From contig JAFRVB010000005.1 in assembly GCA_017441845.1 (NCBI GenBank), forward strand, positions 22,150 through 86,149: a stretch of DNA of 64,000 nt, given 5' to 3'. Shown one piece after another: positions 2,978 through 34,870 of the stretch. Numbering within the stretch: the first letter of the stretch is position 1; each line of letters starts with the position of its first letter. The translations under genes and the position numbers were made by a program. The stretch is from Bacilli bacterium (lineage in GTDB: Bacteria > Bacillota_I > Bacilli_A > RF39 > UBA660). A model generated the notes under the pieces. The model did no database searches. It saw only the letters and a list, made by a program, of their open reading frames with translations, and was not told the origin of the DNA.

Positions 2978-5128
2978 ATGAAATATAGTATGAAGAAAAA
3001 TTATAAATTTTATATAACAGTATTCCTTGTAATATTAATGATAATAACTACACTAATAAGTGTAGGTTTTGGTGCTTTAAATCAAAATTTAAATATAGCT
3101 GGTGATGTTGAATATACTGAAGATGTTAGTAATATGATTAAATCTTGGCCTTATAATAAGAATACAGAATTTCAAAATTCTACATACAGAAATAAAATCA
3201 AAACAGTAGATTTTTTAGATAATAAAACTATTCCTAGTAGTGCTGTTATTTCTTGGGATGTATCAGTAAATAGTGATGGAAAAGTAATGGCTTGGTTAAT
3301 GGATGATCCAAATAACGCTGGATTTTACAAATTGTACATTGGTGCAGATGGCGATGTAATTGCTAATACTAATTCAGAAAATTTGTTCAGTAATTTATTA
3401 GAAGTGGAAACGATTAATATTAATAATAATTTTGATACTTCAAAAGCAACTAATATGGATTCAATGTTTTCTGGATGTAAGAAAATAGTAAATATTGATT
3501 TAAGTGATTTTAATACATCAAGGGTTTCGTATATGAGATATATGTTTTCTGGATGTAGTAGTTTGACAAATATTGATTTAACGACTTTTGATATAAGTAG
3601 AGTATCATATATGACATATATGTTTTCTGATTGTTCAAGTTTGACAAATTTTAGTTTGACAAATTGTGATACCCCGTTTCTTATGAATATGGAAAATATG
3701 TTTAGAGGATGTAGTAGTCTAACTAGTATTAGCCTAACGAATTTTACTAATCCTATACTTCAAACTATGCATTGGATGTTTAATGATTGTACTAATCTAA
3801 CAACTATAAATCTAAGCGGTTTTAATACTTCGGATGTGTCAGATATGTCGTATGTATTTTATAATTGTAGCAGTTTGCAAAGTATAGACTTAACCGACTT
3901 TAATACAAGCAATGTAATAGATATGTCATTTATGTTTTGTAATTGCAGTAGTTTAACAAATTTAGATCTACGAAGTTTTAATACAAGTAGGGTAACAGAC
4001 ATGGATATGATGTTTGATGATTGTGGTAAATTAACAAGTCTTGATTTAACAAACTTTAATACAAGTAATGTAACAAATATGGGATGTATGTTTTCAAATT
4101 GTCAAAGACTAGTTAGTGTTGATTTAAGTACTTTTAATACCTCAAAAGTAATAGATATGACATGTATGTTCCTGGGATGTAATACTTTGACAAGTTTAGA
4201 TTTAAGTACGTTCAATACCTCAAAAGTTACAGATATGAGTAATATGTTTGATTCTTGTACAAATTTATCAAATTTAAATATAAGTAATTTTAATACTTCC
4301 AAAGTGACTAAAATGCAATATATGTTTTCATCTTGTGGTAATCTGACAAATCTCAATTTAAGTCACTTTGATACATCATCAGTAACTAATATGAGAAGTA
4401 TGTTTGATAAATGTTATGGTTTAACAAGTTTAGATGTAACAAACTTTAATACAGATAATGTAACAGATATGTATAGTATATTTTCTACTTGTACTAGGTT
4501 AACAAGTTTAGATGTTACAAGTTTTAGTACGACTAATGTAACAACTATGGAACGTATGTTTTATGGTTGTAGTAGTTTAACAAGCTTAGATGTAACCAAC
4601 TTTGATACATCCAAAGTAACAAATATGTATTGTATGTTTTATGGTTGTAGTAGTTTAACAAGCTTAGATGTATCACATTTTAATACAAGCAGTTCAACAA
4701 ATATGCAAAGTATGTTTTATGGTTGTAGTAGTTTAACAAGCTTAGATGTAACACACTTTAATACGAGTAATGTAACTACTATGGGAAGAATGTTTGCTGG
4801 ATGCAGTAGTATAAACTCATTATCTTTAAGTAATTTTAACACATCACAAGTAACTGATATGAGTTCTATGTTTTCAGGTTGTAATAGTATGGCAAGTATT
4901 AATTTATCAAGTTTTAATACATCTTCAGTTACAAATATGTCATATATGTTCAATGCATGTAGTTCATTAACTGAAATAAAAATCTCTTCTTTATGGGATG
5001 TGTCTAATGTAACTAGTAGTTCTTATATGTTTTCAAGTTGCACTAATTTACCCAATTATAATTCGAGTTATGTTGATAAAAGTATGGCTAAACCAACAAC
5101 TCAAGGAGGATATTTAACTTTAGTTTGA
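2978..5128 (+). CDS. BspA-type leucine-rich-repeat surface protein (DUF285 / mycoplasma-lipoprotein-type LRR) with an N-terminal signal-anchor
   Basis: About 20 tandem ~26-aa repeats of the form NFNTS.VT.M..MF..CSSLTSLDL; N-terminal hydrophobic segment; no C-terminal sorting signal. Confidence 0.75.
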   Translation: MKYSMKKNYKFYITVFLVILMIITTLISVGFGALNQNLNIAGDVEYTEDVSNMIKSWPYNKNTEFQNSTYRNKIKTVDFLDNKTIPSSAVISWDVSVNSDGKVMAWLMDDPNNAGFYKLYIGADGDVIANTNSENLFSNLLEVETININNNFDTSKATNMDSMFSGCKKIVNIDLSDFNTSRVSYMRYMFSGCSSLTNIDLTTFDISRVSYMTYMFSDCSSLTNFSLTNCDTPFLMNMENMFRGCSSLTSISLTNFTNPILQTMHWMFNDCTNLTTINLSGFNTSDVSDMSYVFYNCSSLQSIDLTDFNTSNVIDMSFMFCNCSSLTNLDLRSFNTSRVTDMDMMFDDCGKLTSLDLTNFNTSNVTNMGCMFSNCQRLVSVDLSTFNTSKVIDMTCMFLGCNTLTSLDLSTFNTSKVTDMSNMFDSCTNLSNLNISNFNTSKVTKMQYMFSSCGNLTNLNLSHFDTSSVTNMRSMFDKCYGLTSLDVTNFNTDNVTDMYSIFSTCTRLTSLDVTSFSTTNVTTMERMFYGCSSLTSLDVTNFDTSKVTNMYCMFYGCSSLTSLDVSHFNTSSSTNMQSMFYGCSSLTSLDVTHFNTSNVTTMGRMFAGCSSINSLSLSNFNTSQVTDMSSMFSGCNSMASINLSSFNTSSVTNMSYMFNACSSLTEIKISSLWDVSNVTSSSYMFSSCTNLPNYNSSYVDKSMAKPTTQGGYLTLV

Positions 5129-7736: not shown

Positions 7737-7813
<77 letters not shown>

Positions 7814-7818
7814 TATAT

Positions 7819-7895
7819 GCCTCAATAGCTCAGTTGGTTAGAGCACTTGACTGTTAATCAAGGGGTCCTAGGTTCAAGTCCTAGTTGGGGCGCCA
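7819..7895 (+). tRNA. tRNA-Asn (anticodon GTT)
   Basis: Acceptor GCCTCAA/TTGGGGC; anticodon loop CTGTTAA; CCA end. Confidence 0.85.
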
Positions 7896-7903
7896 TTTTA
7901 TTT

Positions 7904-7980
7904 GGCGAGTTGGTGAAGCGGCTTAACACACTGCCCTTTCACGGCAGCATTCACGGATTCGAATTCCGTACTCGTCACCA
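7904..7980 (+). tRNA. tRNA-Glu (anticodon TTC)
   Basis: Anticodon stem CTGCC/GGCAG with loop CTTTCAC; T-loop TTCGAAT; CCA end; resembles Bacillus tRNA-Glu. Confidence 0.8.
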
Positions 7981-7985
7981 TTTGT

Positions 7986-8004
7986 TTATTAATCCCGAGA
8001 AAGG
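7986..8004 (+). terminator. Hairpin followed by a T-run downstream of tRNA-Glu
   Basis: cccgagaaagggatttttt. Confidence 0.5.
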
Positions 8005-8055
8005 GATTTTTTATTGACATTTAAGAGCTTTTTATGTCATACTATATATGCAGTC

Positions 8056-8147
8056 GGAGCAGTACTCAAGAGGCTGAAGAGGACAGTTTGCTAAACTGTT
8101 AGATCGGGTATACTGGTGCGAGGGTTCGAATCCCTCCTGCTCCGCCA
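8056..8147 (+). tRNA. tRNA-Ser (anticodon GCT), class II with a long variable arm
   Basis: Acceptor GGAGCAG/CTGCTCC; anticodon loop TTGCTAA; long extra arm; CCA end; a TTGACA promoter-like box lies just upstream. Confidence 0.8.
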
Positions 8148-8256: not shown

Positions 8257-8285
8257 TTGCTTTTTACACCATTTTGTGGTATAAT
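8257..8285 (+). promoter_or_regulatory. Sigma-A-type promoter with an extended -10 element
   Basis: TTGCTT, a 17-nt spacer and TGgTATAAT; this lies inside the N-terminal part of the ORF-track call 8274..9935, so the true start of that gene is 8313. Confidence 0.6.
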
Positions 8286-8312
8286 CTATTCGATTCGAGG
8301 GGGAGTGAAATT

Positions 8313-9935
8313 ATGAACAAGAATTGGAAAATAGTTTTAATGGTAGTTGTTATGTTATTCACAGCAATATTTACTATTACTGATGTTAACGCTACAAATA
8401 CTATTAAGTTAACTAGCAAGTCTTATATTAAGGCTGGTGGAAGAAATCATGCTTGGTTTAAAACAAATGCTGGTTATGCATATTGTATAACTCCAAAGAA
8501 GACAGGTCCTAGTGTTGGTACTAAGATGCATCTTGATAAAGAGATCACTGGTACTAGTGGAAATGTACTTTATTACATGTTAAAGAATGATAATCCAAGC
8601 AATAAAAACAACTATGTTTATACACAAGCTGCTATCTGGAGATATTATAATAATTATGTTCCTTATAAATCAGGATCAACTGTAATATCTAAGAGTAAAA
8701 CTATAGTTAGCAAAGCTAAAGCTTCTAAAGCTACACCAAAGAGAGTTGGTATTACTGTAGTTAATAAATCAGGTTCTATGTCTATTAGTAGTGATAATAA
8801 ATATTATCAATCTGGTAAGTTTACTATTAAAACTACAAGTGGTACAAAATATACTGCAAGTGTTAGTGGAAAAGCTTATATTGTAAACGTTAGTGGAAAC
8901 AAGCAAACAACATTTAATTCTGGAGATAGTTTCTATGTTAGAGTAAATGATGCTGACGTTACTAAAAGTCTTACATTTACTATAACTATTAAAACTTCAG
9001 GAACTAATGAATATGTTAGAGTTTACTCAACTGGAAAGAGCTCTTATCAAAAATTAGTATTATTAGATAGTGAGAGTAAATCTGCATCTAAACAACTTAG
9101 TGTTGCAGTTACTCCAGTTAAGAGAGTTTGTACTTATGTTAATGGTAAGTACTATGGTAAAAACGGTACAGTAGTTTCAGAGGCTACATATAAAGATGAA
9201 TGTATGCCAAAATGTGAAGAAAAAGATGGTAAATACTACGATGATAAAGGTAACACTGTTGATAAGGTTACTTATATAAAAATTTGTAAAAAACCAGTTT
9301 GTTCTAAAGTTGATGATATCTTCTTTGGAAAAGATGGTGAAGTAGTTACTGAAGATGTATTTAGGGATCAATGTATGCCAAAATGTGAAGAAAAAGATGG
9401 TAAATACTTTGACGACAAAGGTAACGAAATTGATAAAATCAACTATTACAAAATATGTATAAAACCAACTTGTGAAAAAATAGATGATACTTACTTTGGT
9501 AAAGACGGAAGTATAGTTACTGAAGAAGAATTTAGTAATCAATGTATTCCTAAATGTATAGAAAAAGATGGAAAATATTATGATGATAAAGGTAATGAAA
9601 CTGACAAAACTACATACATCAAAGTATGTAAAAAACCAATTTGTGAAAAAGTAGATGATACTTATTTCGGTAAAAATGGTGATGTAGTTAGCGAATCTGA
9701 ATACAAAAAACAATGTGTTCATGTTTGTGAAGTTTATAATAACCAATATTATGGTAAAGATGGTCTAGTAGTAAGTAAAGAAACTTACAAAGATGAATGT
9801 GAACATGTAGTTGTTCCTGTTCCAAATACTGGTACTAGCTTATTAGAATCATTATTATATATTGTTTTGGGTACAGGTATTGTACTTGGTGGTTTAGGAT
9901 TTGTTGGTTACCAAAATAAACTTTCTGTAAAGTAA
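8313..9935 (+). CDS. Thioester-domain (TQxA-type) cell-wall-anchored adhesin with Cys-rich tandem repeats
   Basis: Signal peptide MNKNWKIVLMVVVMLF after the gagggggag RBS; Cys in NAGYAYCITPKK and the TQxAIW motif YVYTQAAIWRY; about 3.5 repeats of 57 aa each with 4 Cys; C-terminal PVPNTG, then a hydrophobic stretch and a basic tail. Confidence 0.7.
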   Translation: MNKNWKIVLMVVVMLFTAIFTITDVNATNTIKLTSKSYIKAGGRNHAWFKTNAGYAYCITPKKTGPSVGTKMHLDKEITGTSGNVLYYMLKNDNPSNKNNYVYTQAAIWRYYNNYVPYKSGSTVISKSKTIVSKAKASKATPKRVGITVVNKSGSMSISSDNKYYQSGKFTIKTTSGTKYTASVSGKAYIVNVSGNKQTTFNSGDSFYVRVNDADVTKSLTFTITIKTSGTNEYVRVYSTGKSSYQKLVLLDSESKSASKQLSVAVTPVKRVCTYVNGKYYGKNGTVVSEATYKDECMPKCEEKDGKYYDDKGNTVDKVTYIKICKKPVCSKVDDIFFGKDGEVVTEDVFRDQCMPKCEEKDGKYFDDKGNEIDKINYYKICIKPTCEKIDDTYFGKDGSIVTEEEFSNQCIPKCIEKDGKYYDDKGNETDKTTYIKVCKKPICEKVDDTYFGKNGDVVSESEYKKQCVHVCEVYNNQYYGKDGLVVSKETYKDECEHVVVPVPNTGTSLLESLLYIVLGTGIVLGGLGFVGYQNKLSVK

Positions 9936-9944
9936 TATGAAAAG

Positions 9945-9970
9945 AATGAATTTATTCATTCTTTTTTTTG
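9945..9970 (+). terminator. Rho-independent terminator
   Basis: aagaatgaatttattcattctttttttt. Confidence 0.65.
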
Positions 9971-10027
9971 TTGCTATAGTAGAGAGAAACCGAAATTTAT
10001 GGTATACTAAAGTGAGGAGTGATATTT

Positions 10028-13000
10028 ATGGATATAATGAAGAGATTTAACCAAAATTATAATGAGATTGAAAACTATTATAATTTTTTAGTCCAAAAAA
10101 CAAAGAAGCATGAATTCGTTGGTGTAATTAATGAATGGTTAATTGATAACTTTTATTTATTAGTTGAACATAAGAATGGTTTTATGCATGAAAAGAAAAA
10201 CATTCGTAAACATAATAAATTATATAATCAATTATATCCACGTATTAATGATATTGTTGTATCTAAGAATTATAATATCACTTTTAAAATACTATGTGAT
10301 GAATTAAGGAATTATCAAAAAACTAATAAAATGTATTTTACTTATAAAGAATTAGATAGTTTAAAGATAGTATTATTATGTATTTATGTTAATAGATTAA
10401 GTGTTCTATGCAAAGAAGAGCATAAAAAATTAATGGATATTGAAGAAATCAATAGAGTTATTTCTGCTCATGAAAATAAAGAATTAGTTCTTAGTAATTT
10501 CTTTTCTACAAAGAAAATAGAAGAGAATTATCATTATATTTTTGAACTTAATAATAGGTTAAAAGAATTAGGATCTAAAACTAATAAAATATTTAAAGAA
10601 TTAAATACTTTATTAGAAGAAAATAATATTTCATTAAAAGAGATTATTAATGATGAATATCAAAATAAAATGGATAATGATATTTTAGTATCTAATATTT
10701 TTAATGACTTAAAAGAATTTACTGAGTTTGATTCAGAAGATTTATTTGAAAGAGTTTCTAATTGTGAAAAGTTATTCTTAAATGATGAAGTATATGATAA
10801 GATGACTATCGAATCTAAGAAACTATATAGAAAACAATTACTTAAGTTAGCTAAAAAGAATCATACAGATGAACTTAGTTATTTAGAAAGTATTATGGCT
10901 AAGGGTACAGGAGACAAATATCATATAGGTTTTCAGTTATTTAAACAAAAGAAGTATACTTTGAGAATTGTTTTATATTTATTATCTATATTGATATCTA
11001 CATGTTTAGTTGATTATTTTATATGTGGATTCTTCTTACCTAGCAAATATAAAATAATTAGTTTTATACTTTTGTTTATTCCAATATTTGAATTGTTTAT
11101 TCAAGTAATAAATGAGATTCTAATCAAAACAGTCAAACCTGTAGTAATACCAAAACTTGATTTCTCTAAAGGATTACCTGATGATCAAAAGACTATGGTA
11201 GTTATACCTACTATTGTTGGTAATGAGAAAAAGATTAAAGACATGTTTGATCAATTGGAAATGTATTACATCATGAACAATAAATCTAGCAATATGTATT
11301 TTACATTATTGGGTGATGTTAAGAGTAGTTCAAAAGAAGTAGAAGATTATGATGAAACTATCTCTACATATGGTGAAGAATATGCGACTAAATTAAATAA
11401 AAAATATGGGAAAGAATTATTCTATTTCATTTATCGTAAACGTAAATTTAATCCTAAAGAAGGAGAGTATTTAGGATTTGAAAGAAAGCGTGGAGCTTTA
11501 CTTCAATTTAACAAAGTATTGTTACATGAAATGGATAAAGTAACTTCAGGAGAATACTACAACGTAAATATGCTTCTTGATAAAGATTTGGATATTAAAT
11601 ATGTAATTACTTTAGATACTGATTCTAAATTCGTACTTAATACAGCCTTGAACTTAGTTGGAGCAATGGCTCATCCATTAAATAAACCTGTATTAAATAA
11701 AAATAAGACTAAAGTAGTACAAGGTTATGGTATTATGCAACCTAGAGTATCTATCGATATAGAAGATACTAACAAGAGTTTATATTCACAAATATTTGCT
11801 GGTATTGGTGGATTTGATACTTATACTGCGATCGTACCTAATGTATATCAAGATAACTTTGGAGAAGGTAGTTTCATTGGTAAGGGTATCTATGATTTAA
11901 AAGTTTTTGATACTGTTTTAAATGGAACTTTCCCAGATAATAAGATTTTATCTCACGATTTATTAGAAGGTAATTATATTAGATGTGCTTATATATCTGA
12001 TATTGAATTGATGGATGGTTTCCCTGCAAAGTTCTTACCTGATATGAGTAGACATCATAGATGGGCTAGAGGAGATGCTCAAATTATTGGTTGGATTTTT
12101 GGTAAAGTTAGAAATAGACGTGGAACTAAAGTTAAGAATCCAATTAATTTACTTGGTAGATATAAAATACTAGATAATATCATTAGAATGTTCTTACAAC
12201 CATCATTATTATTAGTAGTTATATTAGCTTTACTATTTAGTAAATATTATTTGTGGTGGTTAGCTTTTGTACTTCTAGAAGTCGCAATACCAATCTTCTT
12301 CTTCTTAAGAAGTAAAATGTATAAAGAAGATTCTGATAAAACAGTAATCTACTATAAGAATTTGTTCTATGGTGGAAAGAGTTTAGTACTTAGATGTTTT
12401 ATAGTGTTTATTACACTTCCTTATAACACTAAAATGTACATGGATGCTTTCTTTAGAACTATGTATAGATTATTAATTTCACATAAGAATTTACTTAATT
12501 GGATTACTGCTGATGAGGCAGAAAAAACAATTAAGGATACATTACCTAATTATTTAAGAAACTTTATATTTAACTTTATTGTAGCGATAGGATTATTTGT
12601 ATACTTTGGATATACTTTCCAAGTAGCTTCATTAGTAGTTGGAATATTATTTATGACAGCTCCATTTATCCTATATGCAATTAGTAGAGATATAGATGAA
12701 AATAAATTAGAACTTAATGAAAAAGAAATAGATAAAGTAAAAGATATTGCTTTTAGAAGTTTCTTATACTTTAAAGATAATGTTAGGGAAGAATTTAATT
12801 ATTTAGTACCTGATAATTATCAAGATAATAGAGAAGAAAAATTAGATTTTAGAACTTCACCTACAGCGATAGCATATTCGCTATTAAGTTATATTTGTGC
12901 AGAAAGATTAGATTTCATTAAGATAAGTGAAGCTATTGAAAACTTAAGAAATATACTAGAGAGTGTTAATGGTTTAAAGAAATGGCATGGTCATTTATAT

Positions 13001-16000
13001 AACTGGTATAACGTTAGAACTAAAGAAGTATTGATGCCTAACTTTGTATCTACAGTTGATTCTGGTAACTTTGTCGCAAGTTTAATTGTAGTTAGAGAAT
13101 ACTTAGAAGAAAATGGTGAAGATGACCTAGTTAAATTATGTGATAAATTAATTAAAAACACTAATTTCAAGAAATTATATACAAAGAAAAATGTCTTTAG
13201 TATAGGTTTTGATGAGAATGAAGGTAAACTTTCAGCATACAATTATAATAAGTTTGCATCTGAATCTCGTCTTACATCTTACTTAGCTATTGCTTTAGGG
13301 GAAATTCCTAATAAGCATTGGTTCTGTTTAGATAAGAGTTTAACAACTTATAGAGGTAGAAAAGGATTACTTTCTTGGAGTGGTACTGCTTTTGAATACT
13401 TTATGCCTTACTTATTTATGAAGAATTATCCTAATACTTTATTAGATGAGAGTTATCAATTCGCAAAATTCTGTAATAAAGAATATATTGAAAGTATCGA
13501 TAGAAACTTACCTTGGGGTATTAGTGAAAGTGCTTATAATGAGTTAGATAATTCACTAAACTACAAGTATTTAGCGTTCGCTACACCTCAATTAAAAGCT
13601 AAAGAGGATCAAGAAAACAGAATAGTTCTTTCACCATATTCATCATTAATGATTATGGATATGGCTCCTCAAGAAGTATATAGAAATATTCAAAAATTCA
13701 AAAAATTAGAGATGTTTTCTAAATACGGTTTCTATGAAGCATATGATTATGATAATAAAGGTATAGTTAAGAGTTACTTTGCTCATCACGTTGGTATGAG
13801 TTTAGTTGGTTTAGCTAATTACTTAAATTCTGATTGTATTAAAAATTATTTCCACAGTAATGTTAATATTAAAACTTACGATATATTATTAAAAGAAAAA
13901 GTACAAATTAAGACTTCTATAGATATGAAGATGGCTAAATATAAGAAATATGATTATCAAAAAGAAGAAGTTCAAAATGATATTAGATCTTTCAATTATA
14001 TTTCATTTATGCCTGAAGTATCAGTATTATCAAATAAGAAATATTGTTTACTTATGAATGATAGAGGAGATTCTTTCTCTAGATATAGAACTTTACAATT
14101 AAATAGATATCGTAAAGTTACTGAACAAGATTATGGTTTGTTCTTATATGTTAAAGATTTAGATAGTGGTTATGTTTTCAGTAATACATTCGCACCAATA
14201 AATAGAAAACCTGATAAATATGAAGTGGTATTTGCTTCAGATAAGATTAAATATCTTAGAAGGGATGGAGATATTTCTACTAAGACAGAAATTGTAGTTA
14301 CTAAGAATCATCATGCTGAAATTAGAAAAATTACTTTCAGAAATGATTCTGAAGAAACTAAACATTTAGAGTTAACTACTTATACTGAACCTATACTTAG
14401 TGAAGTTATGAATGATATTTCTCATAGAGTATTTAATAGTATGTTCTTATCTAGTAGTTTTGATGAAGAGACTAATTCTGTTATTGTTAAGAGAAAAACT
14501 AGAGATGAATCTAATATTAATAGTTATATGGTTAATAGATTAGTTATTCCTGGTAAGAATGATGGATATACTTATGATACTGAGAGAGTTCACTTTATAG
14601 GTAGAAATCACTTTACTAGTGATCCTATAGGTTTAAACCAAGAGTTAACTAACTATGTAGGAGATAATCTAGATCCAATTATTTCAATTAGGAACACTTT
14701 AGATTTAGAACCTAATAGTAGTACTGAAATATTTATATTATGTGGATTTGGTCGTAGTAGAGAACAAATTCATGATATTATTAACAATTATGATACTATT
14801 GATAAGATTGATAAAACATTTGAAGTTTCAACATTGATGAATTTAATTAATACTAAGAACATGCAACTTACTGGTAGTGAGATGAGAACATTTAATATTA
14901 TGTTAAATTACTTATATCAAACTACTAGAATTAGTGTTAATGAAGAAAGACAAGATTTATTAAGAAAGAATGCTTTAGGTCAATCTGGATTATGGAAATT
15001 TGGAGTTAGTGGAGATAGACCAATTATCTCTGTAGAAATTTCTGATATTTCTGATTTAGGATTTATTAATGAGATACTTAAGTGTTATGAGTATTATAAA
15101 AATAATTCTATCTTTGTAGATATTATCATTATTAATAATGAAAATTCTCAATATAAGAAAATTATTAAGAAAGAAGTAGAAGAAGAACTATATAGAATGT
15201 ATACAGTTAATAGTTTCTATCATACTCCAGGATCTGTGACTGTAATAGATAGTAATGATATTACTAGAGAAGATAAATCACTTCTTAATATGGTTCCTAG
15301 ACTTAGATTTGTTATTGAAGATCATAAATCTTTAAAAGAAACAGTTGATAAACTACAAAGAATAAATTCTGTTAGTGATTATGAAACTTATCGATTAGAA
15401 GATAATTTGAAATATGAAAATAAAGAAAAATTAGTCTTTGATAATGGATATGGTGGATTTACTAAGAACGGAACTGAGTATGTCGTTTATAAGATGGATA
15501 CACCTCAACCATGGAGTAACGTAATTGCGAATGAGAATTTTGGTACTGTAGTTACTAATAATGCTTGTGGATTTACTTATGCGATGAATTCTTCTGAATT
15601 TAAATTAACTTCATGGACAAATGATATGATTTGTAATGATAAGAGTGAAGGATTTAAATTTAATGGAAAAGTATTTGATCCTACTAAAGCAGTTCATGGA
15701 TTTGGATATTCTATCTTTACTAGTGAAACAGCTGAGTTAAAACATGAAGTTACAGAGTTTGTTCCTAGAGAAGATAGTATTAAAGTTTATATGATGAAAT
15801 TGGTTAATAAGACTGATAGTAAGAAAGATTTAGAAGTTGAGTATTACATAAATCCAGTACTTGGTAACTTTGAAGAAAAAACTACTCGTCATATATTATC
15901 TGAATTTATGGGTGATGATAATTTCTTAAAGATGAGAAATGTTTATAGTATCAATTATGGTGATATAAATGTATTTATGTCTAGTGACATTAAAATAGAT

Positions 16001-17683
16001 AATGCGGTTACTGAAAAGATGTTAGTTAAATCTATTAGTAGTAATATTAGTTTGGGTGCTCATGAAGAAATGGATTTAGTATATGTACTAGGTTGTGGAA
16101 TGAGTGATAAAGAGTGTATTAATCTTATCGAGAAATATACTAATTTAGCTAATTGTAAAAAAGCATTAAAAGATGTTAAAGATAATTGGAATAGAATACT
16201 AGGTACAGTTAAAGTTAAGAGTAAAGATCCAGCGTTTGACTATATGGTTAATGGTTGGTACTTATATCAAACTATGTCTAGTAGAATTATCGCTAAGACT
16301 GGATTCTATCAAGTCAGTGGTGCTTTTGGATATCGTGATCAGTTACAAGATGCGATGAATATTGCGATAGTAGCTCCTGACTTTACTAGAAATCAAATCT
16401 TAACTAATGCTGCTCATCAATTTAGTGAAGGAGATGTTCTTCACTGGTGGCATGAGAAAAATAAATTTGGATTAAGAAGTAGATTTAAAGATGATTATCT
16501 ATGGTTAATATATGCAACAATTTACTATTTAAGAATTACAGAAGATTTATCTATCTTAGAAGAAAAAGTGCCATTTATTGTTGGAGATAAACTAAGAGAG
16601 TATGAAAATGAAAAAGGAATAATATTCAATTATTCTAGAGAAGAAGTTACTCTTTTAGAGCACTTAGAAAGATCTTTAAATCTAGCTATGAATTCATTAG
16701 GTCGTCACAAATTACCTTTAATGGGTGGTGGAGACTGGAACGATGGTATGAATAAAGTTGGTATCAAAGGACGAGGTGAGTCTGTTTGGTTAGGATTCTT
16801 CTTGTATGAGATTATTGATGACTTTGTTAGAATGAGTAAGAAGTTTGGATTTGAAATTGATAGAGAAAAATATAGTGATTTCAATGATAAGTTAAAAGAA
16901 AACTTAAATAAGAAGGCTTGGGATAAAGAATGGTATTTAAGAGCTTTCTATGACAATGGTGATAAACTTGGTTCGGCTGAGAATACTGAGTGTAAAATTG
17001 ATTTAATTTCTCAAAGTTTCGCTATCCTTTCAAATGTTGCAGATCGTGAAAGAAGAGAAGAAGTTATAAGAGCTGTTGAAAGTAACTTGGTAGATGAGAA
17101 GAGTGGTATTATCAAATTACTTACTCCACCATTTGTTAAGAGCTTAAATAACCCTGGATATATCATGAATTATCCACAAGGTGTTAGAGAAAATGGTGGT
17201 CAATATACTCACAGTGTTGCTTGGTATTTGATGGCCTTAATCAAATCTGGTTATGGTGATAGAGCTTATCGTTATTATCAAATGATTAATCCAGCTACTC
17301 GTGCGATTGATCCAAAGACAGTTAAAAAATATAAAGTTGAACCTTATGTAATTTCTGCTGATATATATTCTGCTGATCATAGAGAAGGAAGAGGAGGTTG
17401 GACTTGGTATACAGGTTCAGCTGGATGGTTCTATAAAGTTGGTATCGTAGATATTCTAGGACTTGATAAGAGAGGCGATAAACTAAGAATTAAGCCTAGC
17501 CTTCCAGTTAAATGGGATAATTGTAAGATAACTTATAATTATATGGATACTGAGTATCATATTGAATATATTAAAGGTAAGAAAGAAGAACTTGTTTTAG
17601 ATGGCAAAGTTATCAATGGATATGAAATTGATCTTGTTAATGATAAAAAAGATCATGAAGTAACTTTATATATTAAGAAATAA
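10028..17683 (+). CDS. Giant membrane glycosyltransferase/glycoside-phosphorylase fusion (GT84-like domain plus C-terminal GH94), resembling cyclic beta-1,2-glucan synthase (Cgs/NdvB)
   Basis: ATG at 10028 after the gaggag RBS; TM clusters around aa 310-360 and 730-900; GT-A-like region with DxD (ITLDTDSKF); C-terminal GH94-type catalytic motif MGGGDWNDGM. Confidence 0.6.
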   Translation: MDIMKRFNQNYNEIENYYNFLVQKTKKHEFVGVINEWLIDNFYLLVEHKNGFMHEKKNIRKHNKLYNQLYPRINDIVVSKNYNITFKILCDELRNYQKTNKMYFTYKELDSLKIVLLCIYVNRLSVLCKEEHKKLMDIEEINRVISAHENKELVLSNFFSTKKIEENYHYIFELNNRLKELGSKTNKIFKELNTLLEENNISLKEIINDEYQNKMDNDILVSNIFNDLKEFTEFDSEDLFERVSNCEKLFLNDEVYDKMTIESKKLYRKQLLKLAKKNHTDELSYLESIMAKGTGDKYHIGFQLFKQKKYTLRIVLYLLSILISTCLVDYFICGFFLPSKYKIISFILLFIPIFELFIQVINEILIKTVKPVVIPKLDFSKGLPDDQKTMVVIPTIVGNEKKIKDMFDQLEMYYIMNNKSSNMYFTLLGDVKSSSKEVEDYDETISTYGEEYATKLNKKYGKELFYFIYRKRKFNPKEGEYLGFERKRGALLQFNKVLLHEMDKVTSGEYYNVNMLLDKDLDIKYVITLDTDSKFVLNTALNLVGAMAHPLNKPVLNKNKTKVVQGYGIMQPRVSIDIEDTNKSLYSQIFAGIGGFDTYTAIVPNVYQDNFGEGSFIGKGIYDLKVFDTVLNGTFPDNKILSHDLLEGNYIRCAYISDIELMDGFPAKFLPDMSRHHRWARGDAQIIGWIFGKVRNRRGTKVKNPINLLGRYKILDNIIRMFLQPSLLLVVILALLFSKYYLWWLAFVLLEVAIPIFFFLRSKMYKEDSDKTVIYYKNLFYGGKSLVLRCFIVFITLPYNTKMYMDAFFRTMYRLLISHKNLLNWITADEAEKTIKDTLPNYLRNFIFNFIVAIGLFVYFGYTFQVASLVVGILFMTAPFILYAISRDIDENKLELNEKEIDKVKDIAFRSFLYFKDNVREEFNYLVPDNYQDNREEKLDFRTSPTAIAYSLLSYICAERLDFIKISEAIENLRNILESVNGLKKWHGHLYNWYNVRTKEVLMPNFVSTVDSGNFVASLIVVREYLEENGEDDLVKLCDKLIKNTNFKKLYTKKNVFSIGFDENEGKLSAYNYNKFASESRLTSYLAIALGEIPNKHWFCLDKSLTTYRGRKGLLSWSGTAFEYFMPYLFMKNYPNTLLDESYQFAKFCNKEYIESIDRNLPWGISESAYNELDNSLNYKYLAFATPQLKAKEDQENRIVLSPYSSLMIMDMAPQEVYRNIQKFKKLEMFSKYGFYEAYDYDNKGIVKSYFAHHVGMSLVGLANYLNSDCIKNYFHSNVNIKTYDILLKEKVQIKTSIDMKMAKYKKYDYQKEEVQNDIRSFNYISFMPEVSVLSNKKYCLLMNDRGDSFSRYRTLQLNRYRKVTEQDYGLFLYVKDLDSGYVFSNTFAPINRKPDKYEVVFASDKIKYLRRDGDISTKTEIVVTKNHHAEIRKITFRNDSEETKHLELTTYTEPILSEVMNDISHRVFNSMFLSSSFDEETNSVIVKRKTRDESNINSYMVNRLVIPGKNDGYTYDTERVHFIGRNHFTSDPIGLNQELTNYVGDNLDPIISIRNTLDLEPNSSTEIFILCGFGRSREQIHDIINNYDTIDKIDKTFEVSTLMNLINTKNMQLTGSEMRTFNIMLNYLYQTTRISVNEERQDLLRKNALGQSGLWKFGVSGDRPIISVEISDISDLGFINEILKCYEYYKNNSIFVDIIIINNENSQYKKIIKKEVEEELYRMYTVNSFYHTPGSVTVIDSNDITREDKSLLNMVPRLRFVIEDHKSLKETVDKLQRINSVSDYETYRLEDNLKYENKEKLVFDNGYGGFTKNGTEYVVYKMDTPQPWSNVIANENFGTVVTNNACGFTYAMNSSEFKLTSWTNDMICNDKSEGFKFNGKVFDPTKAVHGFGYSIFTSETAELKHEVTEFVPREDSIKVYMMKLVNKTDSKKDLEVEYYINPVLGNFEEKTTRHILSEFMGDDNFLKMRNVYSINYGDINVFMSSDIKIDNAVTEKMLVKSISSNISLGAHEEMDLVYVLGCGMSDKECINLIEKYTNLANCKKALKDVKDNWNRILGTVKVKSKDPAFDYMVNGWYLYQTMSSRIIAKTGFYQVSGAFGYRDQLQDAMNIAIVAPDFTRNQILTNAAHQFSEGDVLHWWHEKNKFGLRSRFKDDYLWLIYATIYYLRITEDLSILEEKVPFIVGDKLREYENEKGIIFNYSREEVTLLEHLERSLNLAMNSLGRHKLPLMGGGDWNDGMNKVGIKGRGESVWLGFFLYEIIDDFVRMSKKFGFEIDREKYSDFNDKLKENLNKKAWDKEWYLRAFYDNGDKLGSAENTECKIDLISQSFAILSNVADRERREEVIRAVESNLVDEKSGIIKLLTPPFVKSLNNPGYIMNYPQGVRENGGQYTHSVAWYLMALIKSGYGDRAYRYYQMINPATRAIDPKTVKKYKVEPYVISADIYSADHREGRGGWTWYTGSAGWFYKVGIVDILGLDKRGDKLRIKPSLPVKWDNCKITYNYMDTEYHIEYIKGKKEELVLDGKVINGYEIDLVNDKKDHEVTLYIKK

Positions 17684-17712
17684 CCTATAAGAATATTCTT
17701 ATAGGTTTTTCT
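17684..17712 (+). terminator. Rho-independent terminator
   Basis: cctataagaatattcttataggttttt. Confidence 0.65.
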
Positions 17713-21330: not shown

Positions 21331-21463
21331 ATAGTACAAGTAAGTAATTGTCATTTGTTGTATCAAAATATTTTTTATTTGTTAATATTTATTAAAATGT
21401 TAAGTTTTTGTAGAAATATATATTAAATTATTATATAATTTATATAGGATAGAAGGTGTGTGT

Positions 21464-23341
21464 ATGCTAGGAAGTATTAAAGAAATAATTGATAATAGCG
21501 TAATAATAAAATTAGATATAGACATCAGTAATCAACCTAACTTGGTTAATTTACATGTTGTTTTTGAAAATGAAGGTAAGCGTATTGTAGGAGAAATAGC
21601 TAATGTTAATCAAACTGAGATGTTAGCTAATATTGTTGGTGAAATAGAATCAGATACTTCTTTTATTCCTGGTGCAACACTTAAACCTTCATTCAAATCT
21701 CAAGTTAGATTAATTAAAATGGAAGAGTTAGCATTAATTTTAGGTGATCAAGAACTAAAACCAGGATATACTAATTTTGGTTCTAGTAATGTATATACTA
21801 ATTATAGAATTAATGTTCCAATAAATGATTTTTTTAGTAATCACTTTGCAGTGTTAGGAAACTCTGGTGCTGGTAAAAGTTCTACTGTAGCATCAATCAT
21901 TCAAAAATTATTTAGAGGAAATAAAACTCCAATTAATTCAACTATGTTTTTCTTCGATGCTTTTGGAGAATATACTCAAGCATTTACTTCATTACATGAA
22001 GAAAATAATAATATTAATTATAAATGTTATACAACTAATCCTGAAACACCTGATGGTGAATTATTAAGAATACCTGTATGGTTATTAGATTTAGATGATT
22101 TAGCATTGTTACTTGATGCGAATAATGCAGCTCAATTACCAGTTATTGAAAAAACTTTAAAATTAGTTCCAATTCTTACTGGTACTAGTGAATCTACTAT
22201 TAAGAGAAAAAATGATATTATTGCTAGAGCTGTTCAAGAGATCATGTTATCTGGAGGAGACTCTGTTAAAATACATGACCAAGTAGTAGCTGTACTTACT
22301 AAATTTAATACACCTACATTTAATCTACAAACTCAAATAGTTCAACCTGGTTATACTAGAACTTTAAAACAATGTTTATTTGTTGATAAAACTGGTAAGA
22401 TGCAAGAGATGGAGTTAGTTGTTGAATTTATTAGAGGATATATAATGGAAGATGTTTATGAAATTCCTGATGAGGAGTTAAATAAATTCTATTCTCTAAA
22501 AGATTTAGAACTAGCTTTAGAATTTGCTTTAATTGATGAAGGTGCATTAAATAGTGATCAAGTATTTGATTATGCTAATATTATTTCTGTTAGACTTCAT
22601 TCATTAGTTAATGGAGAAACTGCTAAATACTTTGAATATCCTAATTATGTTACTAAGGATCAATATATTGATAGTCTGCTTTTTGATAAAGCTAGTGGTG
22701 GTAAGAGTCAAATAGTTAACTTTAATATAAATTATGTTGATGATAGAATTGCTAAGGTTATGACTAAGATTATTTCTCGTATGATATTTATGAGAGGGGC
22801 TTTGACTAGACCTAGAGGTAGTAATGCTTATCATATTATTATTGAAGAAGCTCATAGATATGTTCAAAAAGATAAAGATGTTGAGTTATTGGGATACAAT
22901 ATCTTTGAACGTATATCTAAAGAAGGTCGTAAATATGGGGTGTTCTTAGCTTTTATTACACAAAGACCTTCAGAGTTATCTGATACATGTATTTCTCAAT
23001 GTAGTAATTTTGTTATTTTAAGATTATTGCATCCTAAAGATTTAAATTATGTAAAGGAAATGGTACCTAATATTACTAGTGAAATAGTACTTCAATTGAA
23101 GAACTTAAAACCTGGTAATGCGATAGCTTTCGGTACTGGATTTAAAGTACCAATAGCTTTAAAAATAGATAGACCAAATCCTGAACCATTATCTAGTAAT
23201 GTTAATCTAGAAGATGTTTGGTATAGACAACCTCAATTTGGTAATGTTCAAGCCATTCAAAATCAAGATTTAGGTGATCCTGTTATTGTTGATGATAATA
23301 CTTCATTTGTAGCGATGACTGAACAACCACCTCAACAATAG
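21464..23341 (+). CDS. HerA/FtsK-superfamily ATPase (HerA-like, DUF87-type)
   Basis: N-terminal HAS-barrel-like region; Walker A GNSGAGKSST; Walker B IIIEEAHRY; HerA-type motif GRKYGVFLAFITQRPSE. Confidence 0.65.
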   Translation: MLGSIKEIIDNSVIIKLDIDISNQPNLVNLHVVFENEGKRIVGEIANVNQTEMLANIVGEIESDTSFIPGATLKPSFKSQVRLIKMEELALILGDQELKPGYTNFGSSNVYTNYRINVPINDFFSNHFAVLGNSGAGKSSTVASIIQKLFRGNKTPINSTMFFFDAFGEYTQAFTSLHEENNNINYKCYTTNPETPDGELLRIPVWLLDLDDLALLLDANNAAQLPVIEKTLKLVPILTGTSESTIKRKNDIIARAVQEIMLSGGDSVKIHDQVVAVLTKFNTPTFNLQTQIVQPGYTRTLKQCLFVDKTGKMQEMELVVEFIRGYIMEDVYEIPDEELNKFYSLKDLELALEFALIDEGALNSDQVFDYANIISVRLHSLVNGETAKYFEYPNYVTKDQYIDSLLFDKASGGKSQIVNFNINYVDDRIAKVMTKIISRMIFMRGALTRPRGSNAYHIIIEEAHRYVQKDKDVELLGYNIFERISKEGRKYGVFLAFITQRPSELSDTCISQCSNFVILRLLHPKDLNYVKEMVPNITSEIVLQLKNLKPGNAIAFGTGFKVPIALKIDRPNPEPLSSNVNLEDVWYRQPQFGNVQAIQNQDLGDPVIVDDNTSFVAMTEQPPQQ

Positions 23342-28896: not shown

Positions 28897-31800
28897 ATGA
28901 AAAAGAAAAAGGGCATTTTAAAAAGTAAGAAAAAACTTACTGGTGTCATAGTTACAAGTTTGCTTGTGCTTGTAGCTGCACTTGGTTTTTTGATGCCAAA
29001 CAATTTTAAAAGTATTCTAACAAATGTTAGAAATGTTTTTGCTGCTGGTGATGAACCTGTAATCAACAAAGCAAGAACAAATAACGGTGATGGAACTTAT
29101 AAGCTTTCATTATCTGTGAAAGGGGATGCAGAAAAGAAACCTCAAAAGGCAAATGTTATTGTTGTTTTTGATACTTCTAGTAGTATGAATAGAAGTACTG
29201 GTCAAACAGAGACTACTTATACACCAACTTCATCTACTGGAACAGGGTTATATGGTTTAGTTGATGGTGAGTATGTTCCATTAACTCGTACTTCTGAACA
29301 AACAGGACCATGGTGGAATCCACAAACAACATATCACTTTTGGTATGATGGTGTTGAATATACTGGACAACGTTATAATAGACAAGAAGCAAATCAGTCA
29401 AGATTACAAGCTGCTCAAGCTGCAACAAATAGTTTAGCTAACTCTTTACTTTCAAATAATGGAAGAGATGGTAATCCAGATGATACTATTGAGATTGCTT
29501 TAGTAGATTTTGCTAATACTGCTGTAATTGCACAAGCACCAACAACAGATTACGATTCATTTGCTGCTGTAGTTAATAGTCGTGATGCAGGTAATAATAA
29601 CAGAGGTACTAACTGGGAAGCTGGATTTAGAACTGCATTGAATGTGAATTTCAATGATAATGATCCTACATATGTGATTTTTGTATCTGATGGAAATCCA
29701 ACATATTATTTACAAGATCCACAAAATACTCAACGTGGTGGAACTGGAGGAGAGACTACAGATAATATAAATACTTCATATAATCAAGCTGTTCCTGCTG
29801 CACAAGGAGTTGTTAATGCTGGTTATAATCTATATACAATCGGTATTTATGGTAGTGTTGATAGAATGGAAGACATTACTACTGATGCAGGTGCTCCAGC
29901 TGATCATTATTATTCTGCTGCTGATACAGCTGCATTACAAGAGGCATTTGCTGAAATCTTAGCTAAGATAGAAATGTCTGGAATTGGTAGTGCTGTAATT
30001 AATGATGGAACTACTAATCAAGTTTCTACTTCTACTGGTATAGTTGAACTATTAGAAGTTGATGAAAATAGTTATAAGTATTATAAAAATGGAGAAGAAT
30101 GGACTGATCCAGAAAATGATGATGAGATTGCTGCTCATTTAGTTAATGGTGTAGTTAAATGGGATTTATCTAAACTAGGTGTTTTAGAAAATGATGTTAC
30201 TTATGAAGTTACATTTGATGTTTATCCTTCCCAAACTACATATGACTATATTGCTGATTTAGAAAATGGTGTAATTGAATATAGTGATTTACCAACAGAA
30301 GTACAAAAATATTTACATCAAAGTGGTACTGCATTAGAAGGAGAAGGATATAGTTATTCATTAGATACTAATACAGAAGATGTAACATTAACATATGATG
30401 ATACAAGAGATGAAGAAGGACCTCAAACTATTGATTTCAATAAATTGAATTCTGTTGCAACTACTTCTGATACTATCTCAATTTCTAAAGAATGGGATAA
30501 CTCAATTGATAGTAGAACAAAAAGACCAGTTTCTGTTAGAATCTTAAAAACAAATGATGATGGAGAATTCCAAAATTATTGCTTTACTGATAGTTGTACT
30601 GCAGAATTAAATCAAAGTAATAACTGGTCATTAAGTGATATTCATATTGCTACTGGTTTAGCAAGATTATCAGGAAACACATTAACAGTTTTAGATACTG
30701 GTCATGATTATAAATTTGATGAGTTAGGATCTGAAGCTTATAACTGGGAATTAGAAACAGAGACTGTTCACCCTATGTTAATAAATGGTGTTTTAACAAA
30801 ACTAATCCTAGTTGAAGAAGATGCTCCTGATATGGGATCAGATAGTTATAAAACTATTGATGGTAAAGAATACTATAAATTAGATAATGGAAAAGTTTAT
30901 GTTAAATCTAATGATGGAGCTAACATTAAAGCTGAGAATCATCGTAGAAGTAATTTAAATATTAAGAAAAATGTTACTGGAGAAAATGCAAATCCAAATG
31001 ATAAATTTGAATTTACTATTAAAGTAACTCAATTAGATGAAAATGGAGATGCTATTGCTGATGACACAACAACAATCAATGATGATATTTGGTTCTCAAT
31101 TTGTGATACATCAATTGATTCAACTTGTGTAAGTCCAGATAGCTTAGTTAAAGATGATAGTCTTGTTACTGGAGCTCAAAAAGAAATAAGAGATGGAGCT
31201 TGGACAGGATACTATTACACAACAAATGATAGTGAAGTAAAAGTAAACTTAAAAGATAAATATAATATAAGATTTACTAATTTAATTTCAAATACTGACT
31301 TTAGTGTAGTTGAATCTAATAAAGCTAATTATGAATTAGATAAGATTGAGACTACTAGTGGATTTGAATCTGAAAATGATAGTAAAACTATAGATAAAAA
31401 TGCTAAGAAGATTACTGGTCATATTGGTGAAAATAATACTTCTTATCAAGTAGAATATACTAATAAGAATACTGTACCTGAAACTGTTGAAGCAACAGTT
31501 AAGAAAGTATGGGATGACGCTGATAACCAAGATGGTAAGAGACCAACAAGTTTAGAAGTTACATTAAGTAATGGAGATAGTGTTACATTAAATGAAGGTA
31601 ATAACTGGACAGCTACAGTTACAGGATTACCAAAATATATAAATGGTGAAGAAGCTACATATACATGGACTGAAGGAACTTTACCTGAAGGTTATTCAAT
31701 GACTTCAAATACAACTTCAGGAACTATTACTACAATAACTAATAGTCATACTCCAGAAGTAACTGAAGTAAGTGGTACAAAAACTTGGGATGATAAAGAT

Positions 31801-34800
31801 AATATTGATGGTGAGAGACCAGAATTTATCACTGTTAGATTATTAGCTAATGGAGATGAAATTGATTCTCAAACAGTTAGAGCTAAAGAAGATGGAACTT
31901 GGAGTTATTCATTCCCTAACTTACCTAAGTATGAAAATGGAGAAGAAATTAATTATACAGTTACTGAAGATGTAGTTAAATACTATACAACTGAAGTAGA
32001 TGGTTATAATATAACTAATACTCATACATTATTTACTACTGATGTTACAGTTAATAAAACTTGGGATGACGCTAATAACCAAGATGGTAAGAGACCAGGT
32101 TCTGTTACTGTAGTATTAAAAGCTGATGGAGTAGCTATCGAAGATACTGCTACATTAAGTGATAGTAATAATTGGAGTCATACTTGGGAAGATTTAGATA
32201 GAATGAATCTTTCTACTAAACAAAAAATTGTTTATACTGTTGAAGAATTACAAGTTACTGATTATACAAGTGATATTTCAGATCCTGTTATTATAGAACA
32301 AGAAACTGAAACAGACTTTGTATCTACATGGAGTTTTGATGTAACAAACTCTCATACACCAGAAGAAACAGAAGCTACTGTTAAGAAAGTATGGGATGAT
32401 GCTAATAACCAAGATGGTAAGAGACCAGCAAGTTTAGATGTTACATTAAATACTGGAAAAACAGTTACATTAAATGAAGGTAATAGTTGGACAGCAACTG
32501 TTACAGGATTACCTAAATATGCTAATGGACAAGAAATTAAATATTCATGGACTGAAGGAAGTTTACCTGAAGGTTATACAATGACTTCAAATACAACTTC
32601 AGGAACTATTACTACAATAACTAATAGTTATACTCCTGAAGAAACATCTGCTACTGTTAAGAAAGTATGGGATGATGCTAATAACCAAGATGGTAAGAGA
32701 CCAGCAAGCTTAGAAGTTGCATTAAGTAATGGTACTAAAGTAACATTAAGTGATAGTAATAACTGGACAGATACTGTTACAGGATTACCTAAATATGCTA
32801 ATGGACAAGAAATTAAATATTCATGGACTGAAGGAAGTTTACCTCAAGGTTATACAATGACTTCTAATACAACTCAAGGAACTATTACTACAATAACTAA
32901 TAGTCATACTCCAGAAGAAACAGAAGCAACAGTTAAGAAAGTATGGACAGATGCAAATAACCAAGATGGTATTAGACCAGGAAGCTTAGAAGTAACATTA
33001 AGTAACGGAGATAGTGTTACATTAAATGCAAGTAATGGTTGGACACAAACTGTTACAGGACTTCCTAAATATGCTAATGGACAAGAAATTACATATACTT
33101 GGAACGAAGAATCTGTTCCAACTGGATACGAATTAGTTTCTAATAAAACTGAAGGAACTGTTACTACAATTACTAATAAACATACTCCAGAAGTTAGAGA
33201 TGTAAATGTTAAGAAAGAGTGGATTGATGATGGTAATTCTCAAAATACTAGACCAACTTCTGTTACAGTTACATTAAAAGCTAATGGAGAAACTGCAGAT
33301 GTTGATGTTCCAACAGTTACATTAAACGAAAGTAATGGATGGCATTATACATGGACAGGTGTAGATAAGAAAGCAAATGGAGAAGATATTGAATATACTG
33401 TAGTAGAAAATCCAGTTGCTAATTATGATACAGATTATGATGAAACTGATGATGGTATAGTTGTTATTAATACTATTCAAGATCTATCAAAAGATATTCC
33501 TGTTGAAAAAGTATGGGATGATGATAATGATAGAGATGGATTAAGACCTGGAACATTAAAAGTAACTATTACTGGTAGAGTTGGAGATACTATTATTAAA
33601 GGAGCGTCTCAAACAGTTACTCTATCTAATAGTACAAGTTGGAAAGGTACATTTACTAACTTACCTGTATTCAATAAGGGAAAATTAATTAGTTATACTA
33701 TTGAAGAAGAAGATGTTTCTGGATATTCAGTAGTTGAAGAATCTACTAATACTTCTAATGAAGCTGCTGGATTCAAGATAACTAATAAACATGATCCTGT
33801 TAAGATTAAAATTTCAGGTGTTAAAAAATGGGATGATGATGAAAACAGAGATGATGCTAGACCTGGAAGCATTACAGTTAATTTATTAAAGAATGGACAA
33901 TCATTTAAGTCTCAAACTGTAACAGCAGGTGATGATGGTAATTGGTCATTCGAATTTGATGATTTATATAAATGTGAAGGTGGACAAGATATTGTTTATA
34001 CATTAACTGAAGAAACAGTTGATGGATATACAGCTGTAATTGGACAAGTAACTGAAGATACTGAAAATCTTAATAATTACACAGTTACAGTTACTAATAC
34101 TCATACACCTGAAACTATTACATATAAAATTACTAAGTCTTGGGATGATTTAGATAATAATGATGGTGTAAGACCAGCAAGTGTTACTGTTAGATTAAAA
34201 GCTGATGGAGTTGAAATTGCTTCACAAGTATTAAATGAAAGTAATGGATGGACTTATACATTCACTAATTTACCTAAATATAAACAAGGTTCAGTAGGAG
34301 TATTAATTCAATATACAATTGTTGAAGATGAAGTTGAAGGCTATGATGCTAGTTTCACTGATATAGTTAGTGATAAGACTACTACAGCAATTGAAAATAC
34401 AATTACTAATAAACATACTCCAGAATTACATGAAGATATCAAAGTTACTAAGACTTGGGTAGATGAAAATAATAAATATGGTGTAAGACCTGAAAAGATT
34501 ACTGTTAGACTATATGCTAATGGTGAAGAAGTTGATGTTTGTACATTAACTGCTGCTAATGGATGGACTTATACTTGGACAGGTCTACTTAAATATAAAG
34601 ATGGAGTAGAAATAATTTATACAATTTCTGAAGATGCTGTAAGAAATTATAGTACTAAGATAGATGGCTATAATATAACTAATACTTATAATGGTCCACA
34701 TGGAGAAATAGTACCTCCAAATACAATGGTTAGTGGAAGTGCTCTAGGTACTGCAACTAATACAAGTAATGGAGGAAACTTCAGTGTACTATTCCTATTA

Positions 34801-34848: not shown

Positions 34849-34870
34849 TATTTGCTTTTTTTGTTGACAA
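34848..34870 (+). terminator. Rho-independent terminator
   Basis: aagcaaataattaatatttgcttttttt. Confidence 0.6.

Follow-up and report, generated by a model that had tools for sequence, protein, structure and literature searches.

Cyclic β-1,2-glucans, typically with a degree of polymerization of about 17-25, have been studied almost exclusively as periplasmic osmoprotectants and host-interaction factors of Proteobacteria, where the system consists of the synthase Cgs, an exporter of the ChvA/NdvA/Cgt type that carries the product to the periplasm and, sometimes, Cgm. The locus described here raises the question of whether a synthase of this kind is also encoded by a Gram-positive gut bacterium, and what it would do there. 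We analyzed a 64,000-nucleotide stretch of contig JAFRVB010000005.1 from a low-GC Bacillota genome ("the window" below) and, within it, one gene, here called cgs. Judged from its sequence, the 2,551-amino-acid (aa) product is a Cgs/NdvB-type synthase that unites a membrane-bound GT84 glycosyltransferase, a GH144-like middle domain and a GH94 module, and by homology it probably works as a cyclic β-1,2-glucan synthase in the manner described for its characterized relatives.

Reading frame, domain order and functional residues

A scan for open reading frames (ORFs) returned one long frame on the + strand, 10019..17683, of 2,554 aa when counted from its GTG codon. The ATG at 10028, with the stop codon ending at 17683, is the preferred start because a GAGGAG ribosome-binding site lies upstream, because a product of 2,551 aa was called independently on a metagenomic contig that carries an identical gene (L001), and because the N-termini of the orthologues coincide with it. 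An intact 7.6-kb frame in DNA of 27% GC is not a matter of chance. An AT-rich hairpin with a T-run at about 9941-9970 closes the upstream gene, and the promoter-like site of cgs comes after it (Table 1).

When the protein was searched with phmmer against the PDB, the cryo-EM structures 8rf0 and 8rf9 of Agrobacterium tumefaciens Cgs matched colinearly (E=0, 1274 bits) in three stretches covering residues 3-2501 of the query. The domain order is that of the A. tumefaciens enzyme, also known as ChvB (PDB 8rf0, 8rf9, 8rfe; Sedzicki et al. 2024, PMC10901819): an N-terminal domain (NTD), transmembrane (TM) helices 1-2, GT84, TM3-6, a cyclase (CY, GH189), and a GH94 module in which a Rossmann-fold-like subdomain (RFL) is inserted, giving the succession GP1, RFL, GP2, GP3. 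Pfam recognized four modules, namely 'Glycoamylase' (GH144-like, PF10091, residues 1077-1278), two GH94 supersandwich domains (PF06165) and the GH94 catalytic domain (PF17167, residues 2054-2478, E=2.4e-111). No Pfam or NCBIfam model matched the N-terminal ~900 residues, which hold the NTD and the GT84 region (with Pfam, even when the two were searched as separate pieces), and no NCBIfam model matched the whole 2,551-aa protein; with the models silent there, the NTD and GT84 were assigned by alignment to the solved Cgs. Beyond the glycosyltransferase domain, hydropathy peaks lie at 718-736, 742-760, 846-864 and 867-885, with an extra weak peak at 779-797. By hydropathy and alignment, the pattern of two helices before and four after this domain occupies positions homologous to the six A. 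tumefaciens helices, with the orientation taken from homology. Across the family, the TM4-5 loop measures 66-88 aa, and a segment of ~200 aa separates the supersandwich subdomains in all aligned representatives.

The NTD found no match in the PDB as a single sequence. A profile built from 12 clade members and near relatives aligned, over profile positions 4-295, with residues 59-358 of A. tumefaciens Cgs (E=4.7e-19), an enzyme for which an NTD scaffold has been described (PMC10901819). An NTD, 224-462 aa long, is present in each of the 72 aligned family representatives, and its residues W37, D40, N41, Y267 and R268 show family-wide conservation of at least 90%.

These results bear on the initial annotation, which had been made from the sequence before any database was consulted. 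Its ORF of 2,551 aa at 10028-17683 is confirmed by the ribosome-binding site, the independent gene call and the orthologue starts, and the Cgs/NdvB-like architecture that it proposed is supported by the end-to-end alignment with 8rf0/8rf9 and by the Pfam domains. The motifs it had listed were all located: GGGDWNDGM at residues 2233-2241, the DxD motif (LDTDSK) at 529-534 and hydrophobic clusters at ~314-361 and ~714-887. Among the three domains that it had suggested confirming with profile models, GH94 and the GH144-like domain were recovered by Pfam, whereas the GT84 region, which no model detected, was placed by alignment to 8rf9. The suggestion that a ~300-aa N-terminal region sets this protein apart from proteobacterial Cgs is refuted by the profile match and by the presence of an NTD in all 72 representatives.

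Residue roles were taken from PMC10901819, PMC10834661 and PMC11842490, and in the alignment all catalytic and functional residues mapped in that literature are kept. In GT84, D530/D532 (the DxD motif), D644 and R678 align to D624/D626, D739 (the catalytic base) and R773 of RrCGS; R678/W679 form the RW motif, and D430 aligns to the first UDP-binding Asp, with a numbering good to within one residue. These GT84 residues are conserved both within the clade and in the wider family. The predicted primer tyrosine is Y599 (in FDTYTAIV), which does not vary among clade members, shows family-wide conservation of at least 90% and is aligned to Y694 of RrCGS, the tyrosine that is autoglucosylated in the IF1-homology loop (PMC10901819). 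In the cyclase, E1079 (acid/base) and E1167 (nucleophile) align to RrCGS E1300 and E1386 and equally to the acid/base E1356 and nucleophile E1442 of TiCGS, whose E1400, H1536, H1537, W1109 and Y1456 correspond to E1123, H1253, H1254, W993 and Y1181. In GH94, D2104 and the catalytic acid D2239 (within GGGDWNDGM) align to RrCGS D2393 and D2528. Ten key residues were scored; they are invariant in 27 clade members, and all ten are present in 70 of the 71 other aligned family representatives.

The remaining representative, P0136 (2,446 aa), is the only one of the 71 in which most key residues are replaced. Its pattern reads DNSNKSI-ED instead of DDYDRWEEDD, so that only the first DxD Asp and the two GH94 Asp are kept, and its sequence suggests a Cgs-derived protein that may have a different or lost synthase function.

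Predicted reaction and the compact cyclase domain

A reaction scheme can be drawn from the homologous enzymes of Agrobacterium, Brucella and Thermoanaerobacter. The protein would be anchored in the cytoplasmic membrane by its six TM helices, with all catalytic domains on the cytoplasmic side. GT84 would glucosylate Tyr599 to create a protein-linked primer and then extend it with UDP-glucose into a linear β-1,2-glucan, while GH94 would set the chain length by phosphorolysis at the non-reducing end, releasing glucose-1-phosphate. Finally, GH189, with E1167 as nucleophile and E1079 as acid/base, would cleave the chain and join its ends by intramolecular transglycosylation, freeing the cyclic glucan. 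The sequence comparisons themselves establish homology, domain order, conservation of the mapped functional residues, purifying selection and wide occurrence in the clade; enzyme activity, ring size and the destination of the glucan are inferred.

Several points weigh against this assignment. The cyclase, although matched by the crystallized Thermoanaerobacter italicus cyclase domain 8wy1 at E=9e-93, is without ~147-158 residues that both characterized enzymes possess (RrCGS 1117-1264; 8wy1 chain 148-306). To our knowledge, no short-form Cgs has been tested for activity. A model of the cyclase built with AlphaFold (AF2) is of only moderate confidence (mean pLDDT 65, pTM 0.76). The protein and its close relatives are assigned by sequence comparison, not by biochemistry. 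No exporter of the ChvA/NdvA/Cgt type is evident in the 64-kb window, and searchable full text holds no report of cyclic β-1,2-glucan produced in vivo by any Firmicute.

Within the protein, the missing helical insert, of ~130-150 aa, appears, from the alignments, to be the only structural difference from the solved Cgs. Y994 and E1079 lie 86 aa apart here, compared with a distance of ~210-240 aa in the two characterized enzymes, and the authors of PMC10834661 described the extra helices as unique to CGSs. Across the 72 representatives, the same distance varies continuously from 86 to 303 aa (0 to ~215 extra residues), and ~30 of them (~40%) belong to the minimal class with a spacing of no more than 99 aa. 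One minimal-form representative, P0125, has cluster members that are named Bacteroidales metagenome-assembled genomes (MAGs). Given this continuous variation and the many minimal members, the insert looks like a variable decoration and not like a catalytic requirement. On the same figures, we rejected the idea that its absence marks a new clade-specific variant: the minimal cyclase is compact but common within the family, and it does not constitute a new architecture. The AF2 model was used for fold assignment only, and its best structural match is 8wy1 (TMq 0.75), followed by 8rf0 and then by GH144 endo-β-1,2-glucanases of similar size.

The main rival explanation starts from this domain and holds that β-1,2-glucan is made but, owing to the minimal cyclase, is released in linear form or at a different size. 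The short Y994-E1079 spacing, the description of the absent helices as specific to CGSs, and a cyclase about as large as a GH144 endoglucanase that stands alone (TMt 0.70 to 5gzk) speak for it. Both catalytic Glu residues are nevertheless kept, together with E1123, H1253, H1254, W993 and Y1181, and the continuous range of insert lengths, with ~30 of 72 representatives at the minimal end, argues in the same direction, so we regard a linear or atypical product as improbable.

Conservation and relation to known enzymes

Forty-one species-level genomes carry orthologues of cgs at 57-88% identity, and where the contig is long enough nearly all of these are full length. The genomes are all MAGs of uncultured gut or rumen bacteria, with labels such as Bacilli, Tenericutes, 'Mycoplasma sp. 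CAG:877' and Candidatus Faecimonas; Ca. Faecimonas corresponds to GTDB genus CAG-877 in the order RF39, and its type genome has a size of 1.4 Mb and a GC content of 28% (PMC8035907). Metagenomes added more than 120 clusters at an identity of at least 63%. The ratio of nonsynonymous to synonymous substitution rates (dN/dS) comes to 0.11 in the comparison with the closest orthologue and to 0.22-0.25 in those with more distant orthologues, and within the clade each domain is 37-72% identical, from which we conclude that the gene is under purifying selection with no domain decaying.

In a library clustered at 50% identity, the wider family numbers 2,834 representatives at E<=1e-30, and relatives already bear the names 'cyclic beta-1,2-glucan synthetase' (JGI) or 'glucoamylase family protein' (NCBI). 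CAZy tables for clostridial MAGs and for rumen metatranscriptomes also list GT84; the literature searched contained no other mention in Firmicutes or RF39, and no searchable report of cyclic β-1,2-glucan, or of a role for it, in any monoderm. A Cgs cyclase domain from the Firmicute T. italicus has been characterized biochemically (PMC10834661). Hence, the Firmicute context of Cgs is not itself new, and the surprise at a synthase in this lineage that the initial annotation implied is weakened by the T. italicus enzyme, by the size of the family and by the existing annotations.

The closest comparison is with A. tumefaciens Cgs, which belongs to the same family as Brucella abortus Cgs and Sinorhizobium NdvB. 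Both proteins have about six homologous TM segments and all mapped catalytic and primer residues, although the identity of long-form family members to this protein is only ~30-35%. Ours is ~280 aa shorter, with an NTD of 305 aa against ~360-400 aa and a CY domain without the ~147-aa insert. The setting differs as well: the present host is a gut Bacillota of the monoderm type, which lacks a periplasm, and no chvA-like exporter gene adjoins cgs. TiCGSCy/Tg of T. italicus (GH189; PDB 8wy1; Tanaka et al. 2024, PMC10834661), likewise from a Firmicute, has the nucleophile, acid/base and supporting residues in common with the predicted CY domain and is its best structural match, but carries ~158 extra residues (chain 148-306); it was characterized as an isolated cyclase domain and not as a whole enzyme (PMC10834661). 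GH94 1,2-β-oligoglucan and cellobiose phosphorylases (8ho9, 3qde; Listeria innocua SOGP, PMC3960220) can be aligned with the C-terminal ~520 aa throughout the catalytic domain and share the catalytic Asp in the GDWND motif. Those enzymes, however, are soluble, stand-alone, catabolic proteins of ~800-1100 aa, whereas GH94 is here fused to a membrane GT84 and a cyclase. GH144/GH162 endo-β-1,2-glucanases (Chitinophaga pinensis SGL, 5gzh/5gzk) have the same (α/α)6 fold, a similar size (TMt ~0.70) and the PF10091 match, but only 15-19% identity, and the CY domain here has the retaining nucleophile Glu of GH189 as defined for TiCGS (PMC10834661).

Genomic setting, host and biological meaning

The coordinates of cgs, its predicted domains and expression signals, and the two genes that follow it are given in Table 1.

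Table 1. Features of the cgs locus, in coordinates of the window.
Feature	Coordinates	Strand	Basis or remark
Promoter-like site TAGAGA-17 nt-TATACT, TG before the -10 (extended -10)	9980..10008	+	Consensus scan only
Ribosome-binding site GAGGAG, 9 nt 5' of the ATG	10013..10018	+	
cgs ORF	10028..17683	+	Colinear with A. tumefaciens Cgs (8rf0/8rf9), E=0, 1274 bits
NTD, predicted cytoplasmic, aa 1-305	10028..10942	+	Profile match to 8rf0 residues 59-358
TM helices 1-2, aa ~306-370	10943..11137	+	Hydropathy 314-332, 343-361; aligned to 8rf9 TM1-2
GT84 glycosyltransferase, aa ~371-710	11138..12157	+	Alignment to 8rf9; roles from PMC10901819
TM helices 3-6 with ~84-aa TM4-5 loop, aa ~711-890	12158..12697	+	Hydropathy
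Cyclase/transglycosylase (CY, GH189, GH144-like), minimal form, aa ~891-1310	12698..13957	+	PF10091; 8wy1 (E~1e-83) and 8rf0 matches
GH94 supersandwich GP1 and GP2 with inserted Rossmann-fold-like subdomain (aa ~1610-1780)	13958..16147	+	PF06165; 8rf9 1245-2235; boundaries approximate
GH94 catalytic (α/α)6 and C-terminal β-sandwich, aa ~2041-2551	16148..17680	+	PF17167; 8rf0; cellobiose phosphorylases
Terminator-like hairpin, 11-bp stem and T-run, directly 3' of the cgs stop	17682..17707	+	
Probable compact glucose-6-phosphate isomerase, 372 aa	17751..18869	+	PRK14097; PDB; neighbour, probably outside the system
Cof-type HAD-IIB phosphatase, 254 aa	18895..19659	+	Syntenic after pgi in most relatives

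The gene downstream of cgs encodes a probable glucose-6-phosphate isomerase (PGI) that matches NCBIfam PRK14097 at E=1.3e-103 and 347 bits, under the curated cut-off of 443 bits, and the Bacillus and Staphylococcus structures 3ifs, 3ff1 and 1b0z at E~1e-70 (B. anthracis 3ifs, E=5e-72). It is shorter than the B. anthracis enzyme by ~28 N-terminal residues and several loops, and orthologues in the clade measure 372-397 aa. The motifs GIGGS, SKSG, DIGGRYS, GESEGK, HSLGQ and FDQPGVEVYK, which we take to be the catalytic motifs of PGI, are intact relative to 3ifs. What had been described initially as a shortened Pgi-like gene is probably a compact PGI of the Firmicute type.

The same annotation had suggested that cgs and pgi point to an uncharacterized glucan pathway, and a fuller version of this idea is that cgs, pgi and the HAD phosphatase gene form a dedicated, co-regulated unit. 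In most of the 41 loci with sufficient contig, pgi does lie 3' of cgs, usually followed by the HAD gene, and the chemistry would fit, as the glucose-6-phosphate supplied by PGI leads towards UDP-glucose and glucose-1-phosphate is a product of phosphorolysis by GH94. Against this stand the terminator-like hairpin after the cgs stop and a separate TG-extended -10-like element, TAAAAT, before pgi. The conserved order is murE-ddl-...-cgs-pgi-HAD-rluA, and since the block also holds genes for a PP2C phosphatase, sepF, divIVA and ileS, it reflects general chromosomal synteny of housekeeping genes. In several species, moreover, other genes split the pair (a pair of small ORFs intervenes in L004, and L002, L013 and L029 have gaps of 2-4 kb), and the PGI itself, whose motifs are intact, resembles an ordinary enzyme of glycolysis. 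A dedicated pathway is accordingly an unlikely explanation of the gene order.

A mainly catabolic role, in which GH94 and GH189 would phosphorolyse or rearrange imported β-1,2-glucans, can draw on the reversibility of GH94 phosphorylases and on the stand-alone β-1,2-oligoglucan phosphorylases of Gram-positives (Listeria innocua, PMC3960220). It is nevertheless very unlikely, as the clade shows no variation in the GT84 active site or at the primer Tyr, the entire synthase architecture is kept, TM helices included, and no sugar importer or β-glucosidase was found beside cgs. That cgs is a decaying relic of a clade with reduced genomes (~1.4 Mb, PMC8035907) is effectively refuted by the intact 7.6-kb frame, the dN/dS of 0.11-0.25, the conservation in 41 species-level genomes and the full set of catalytic residues.

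In the window and in the ±6-kb flanks of the 41 relatives, no plain ABC exporter gene lies beside cgs; the window encodes a single ABC exporter (40039-42093), and this one has a C39 peptidase domain. Directly 5' of cgs, at 8274-9935, is a gene for a 553-aa protein with a thioester (TED) domain as in covalent adhesins, and homologues of 32-68% identity occupy the same position in L002, L003, L012, L019, L028 and L031. A HerA/DUF87-type ATPase of 627 aa (21458-23341) is encoded between the PP2C phosphatase gene and sepF/divIVA, its HerA matches falling far below the curated cut-offs.

The GC content of the window is 19-32%, and that of cgs matches its surroundings. Horizontal acquisition of cgs was considered and rejected, given this GC content and the position among housekeeping genes whose synteny is conserved. 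Among the products encoded in the window are MurE, Ddl, SepF, DivIVA, a sortase and an adhesin with Cna_B and VWA domains, a set that points to a walled monoderm host and agrees with the initial description of a low-GC Gram-positive, now supported as a low-GC Bacillota. The pilus-like locus at 28897-37151 comprises this adhesin (1,983 aa, VWA plus 11 Cna_B repeats), a SpaA-fold pilin and the sortase. Sortases have been reported absent from the related orders RFN20 and ML615J-28 (PMC10868615), so the sortase here fits an RF39-like walled host.

Other features of the window are recorded for completeness. Over positions 1-64000, the + strand carries all but a handful of the ORFs and the GC skew stays positive (+0.08 to +0.46), a pattern consistent with a single replichore whose genes very strongly favour the leading strand. 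Positions 7737-8147 hold a tRNA cluster (Ile, Asn, Glu, Ser). The PARCEL-repeat surface protein encoded at 2978-5128 has 716 aa and 17 repeats (NCBIfam TIGR02167), while its counterpart on L001, the contig with the identical cgs, has 664 aa and its best match is just 87% identical; comparison of the two sequences suggests that the repeat copy number varies between otherwise identical strains. Two ribosomal proteins carry unusual extensions: L20 (61804-62439, 211 aa) has a C-terminal extension of ~100 aa ending in a SAP/Rho_N-like domain, and S2 (62527-63630, 367 aa) a C-terminal Rho_N-like domain. The region 40000-48000 has the lowest GC of the window (19-24%) and encodes the bacteriocin-type C39-peptidase ABC exporter, a TMEM43-like protein and several ORFs without a Pfam match, including one of 699 aa (45796-47895); it may be an accessory island.

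Returning to cgs as a cyclic β-1,2-glucan synthase, what is known of the enzyme family itself is unchanged by this protein. One speculative picture, which we consider rather unlikely as a whole, is that RF39-like, genome-reduced Bacilli of the gut and rumen make cyclic β-1,2-glucan with a minimal Cgs and without a ChvA-type exporter, the product being kept in the cytoplasm as a compatible solute or released. Should it hold, these bacteria could be an unrecognized source of β-1,2-glucan for gut Bacteroides, with their GH144-like proteins, and for Firmicutes with β-1,2-oligoglucan phosphorylase loci, both of which appear equipped to consume such glucans. A compact Cgs with a minimal cyclase could also offer a simpler scaffold for recombinant production of cyclic glucans and for structural work. 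The retention of a 7.6-kb gene under purifying selection in at least 41 gut species, at least one of them with a genome of ~1.4 Mb, implies an important role in cells that have no periplasm.

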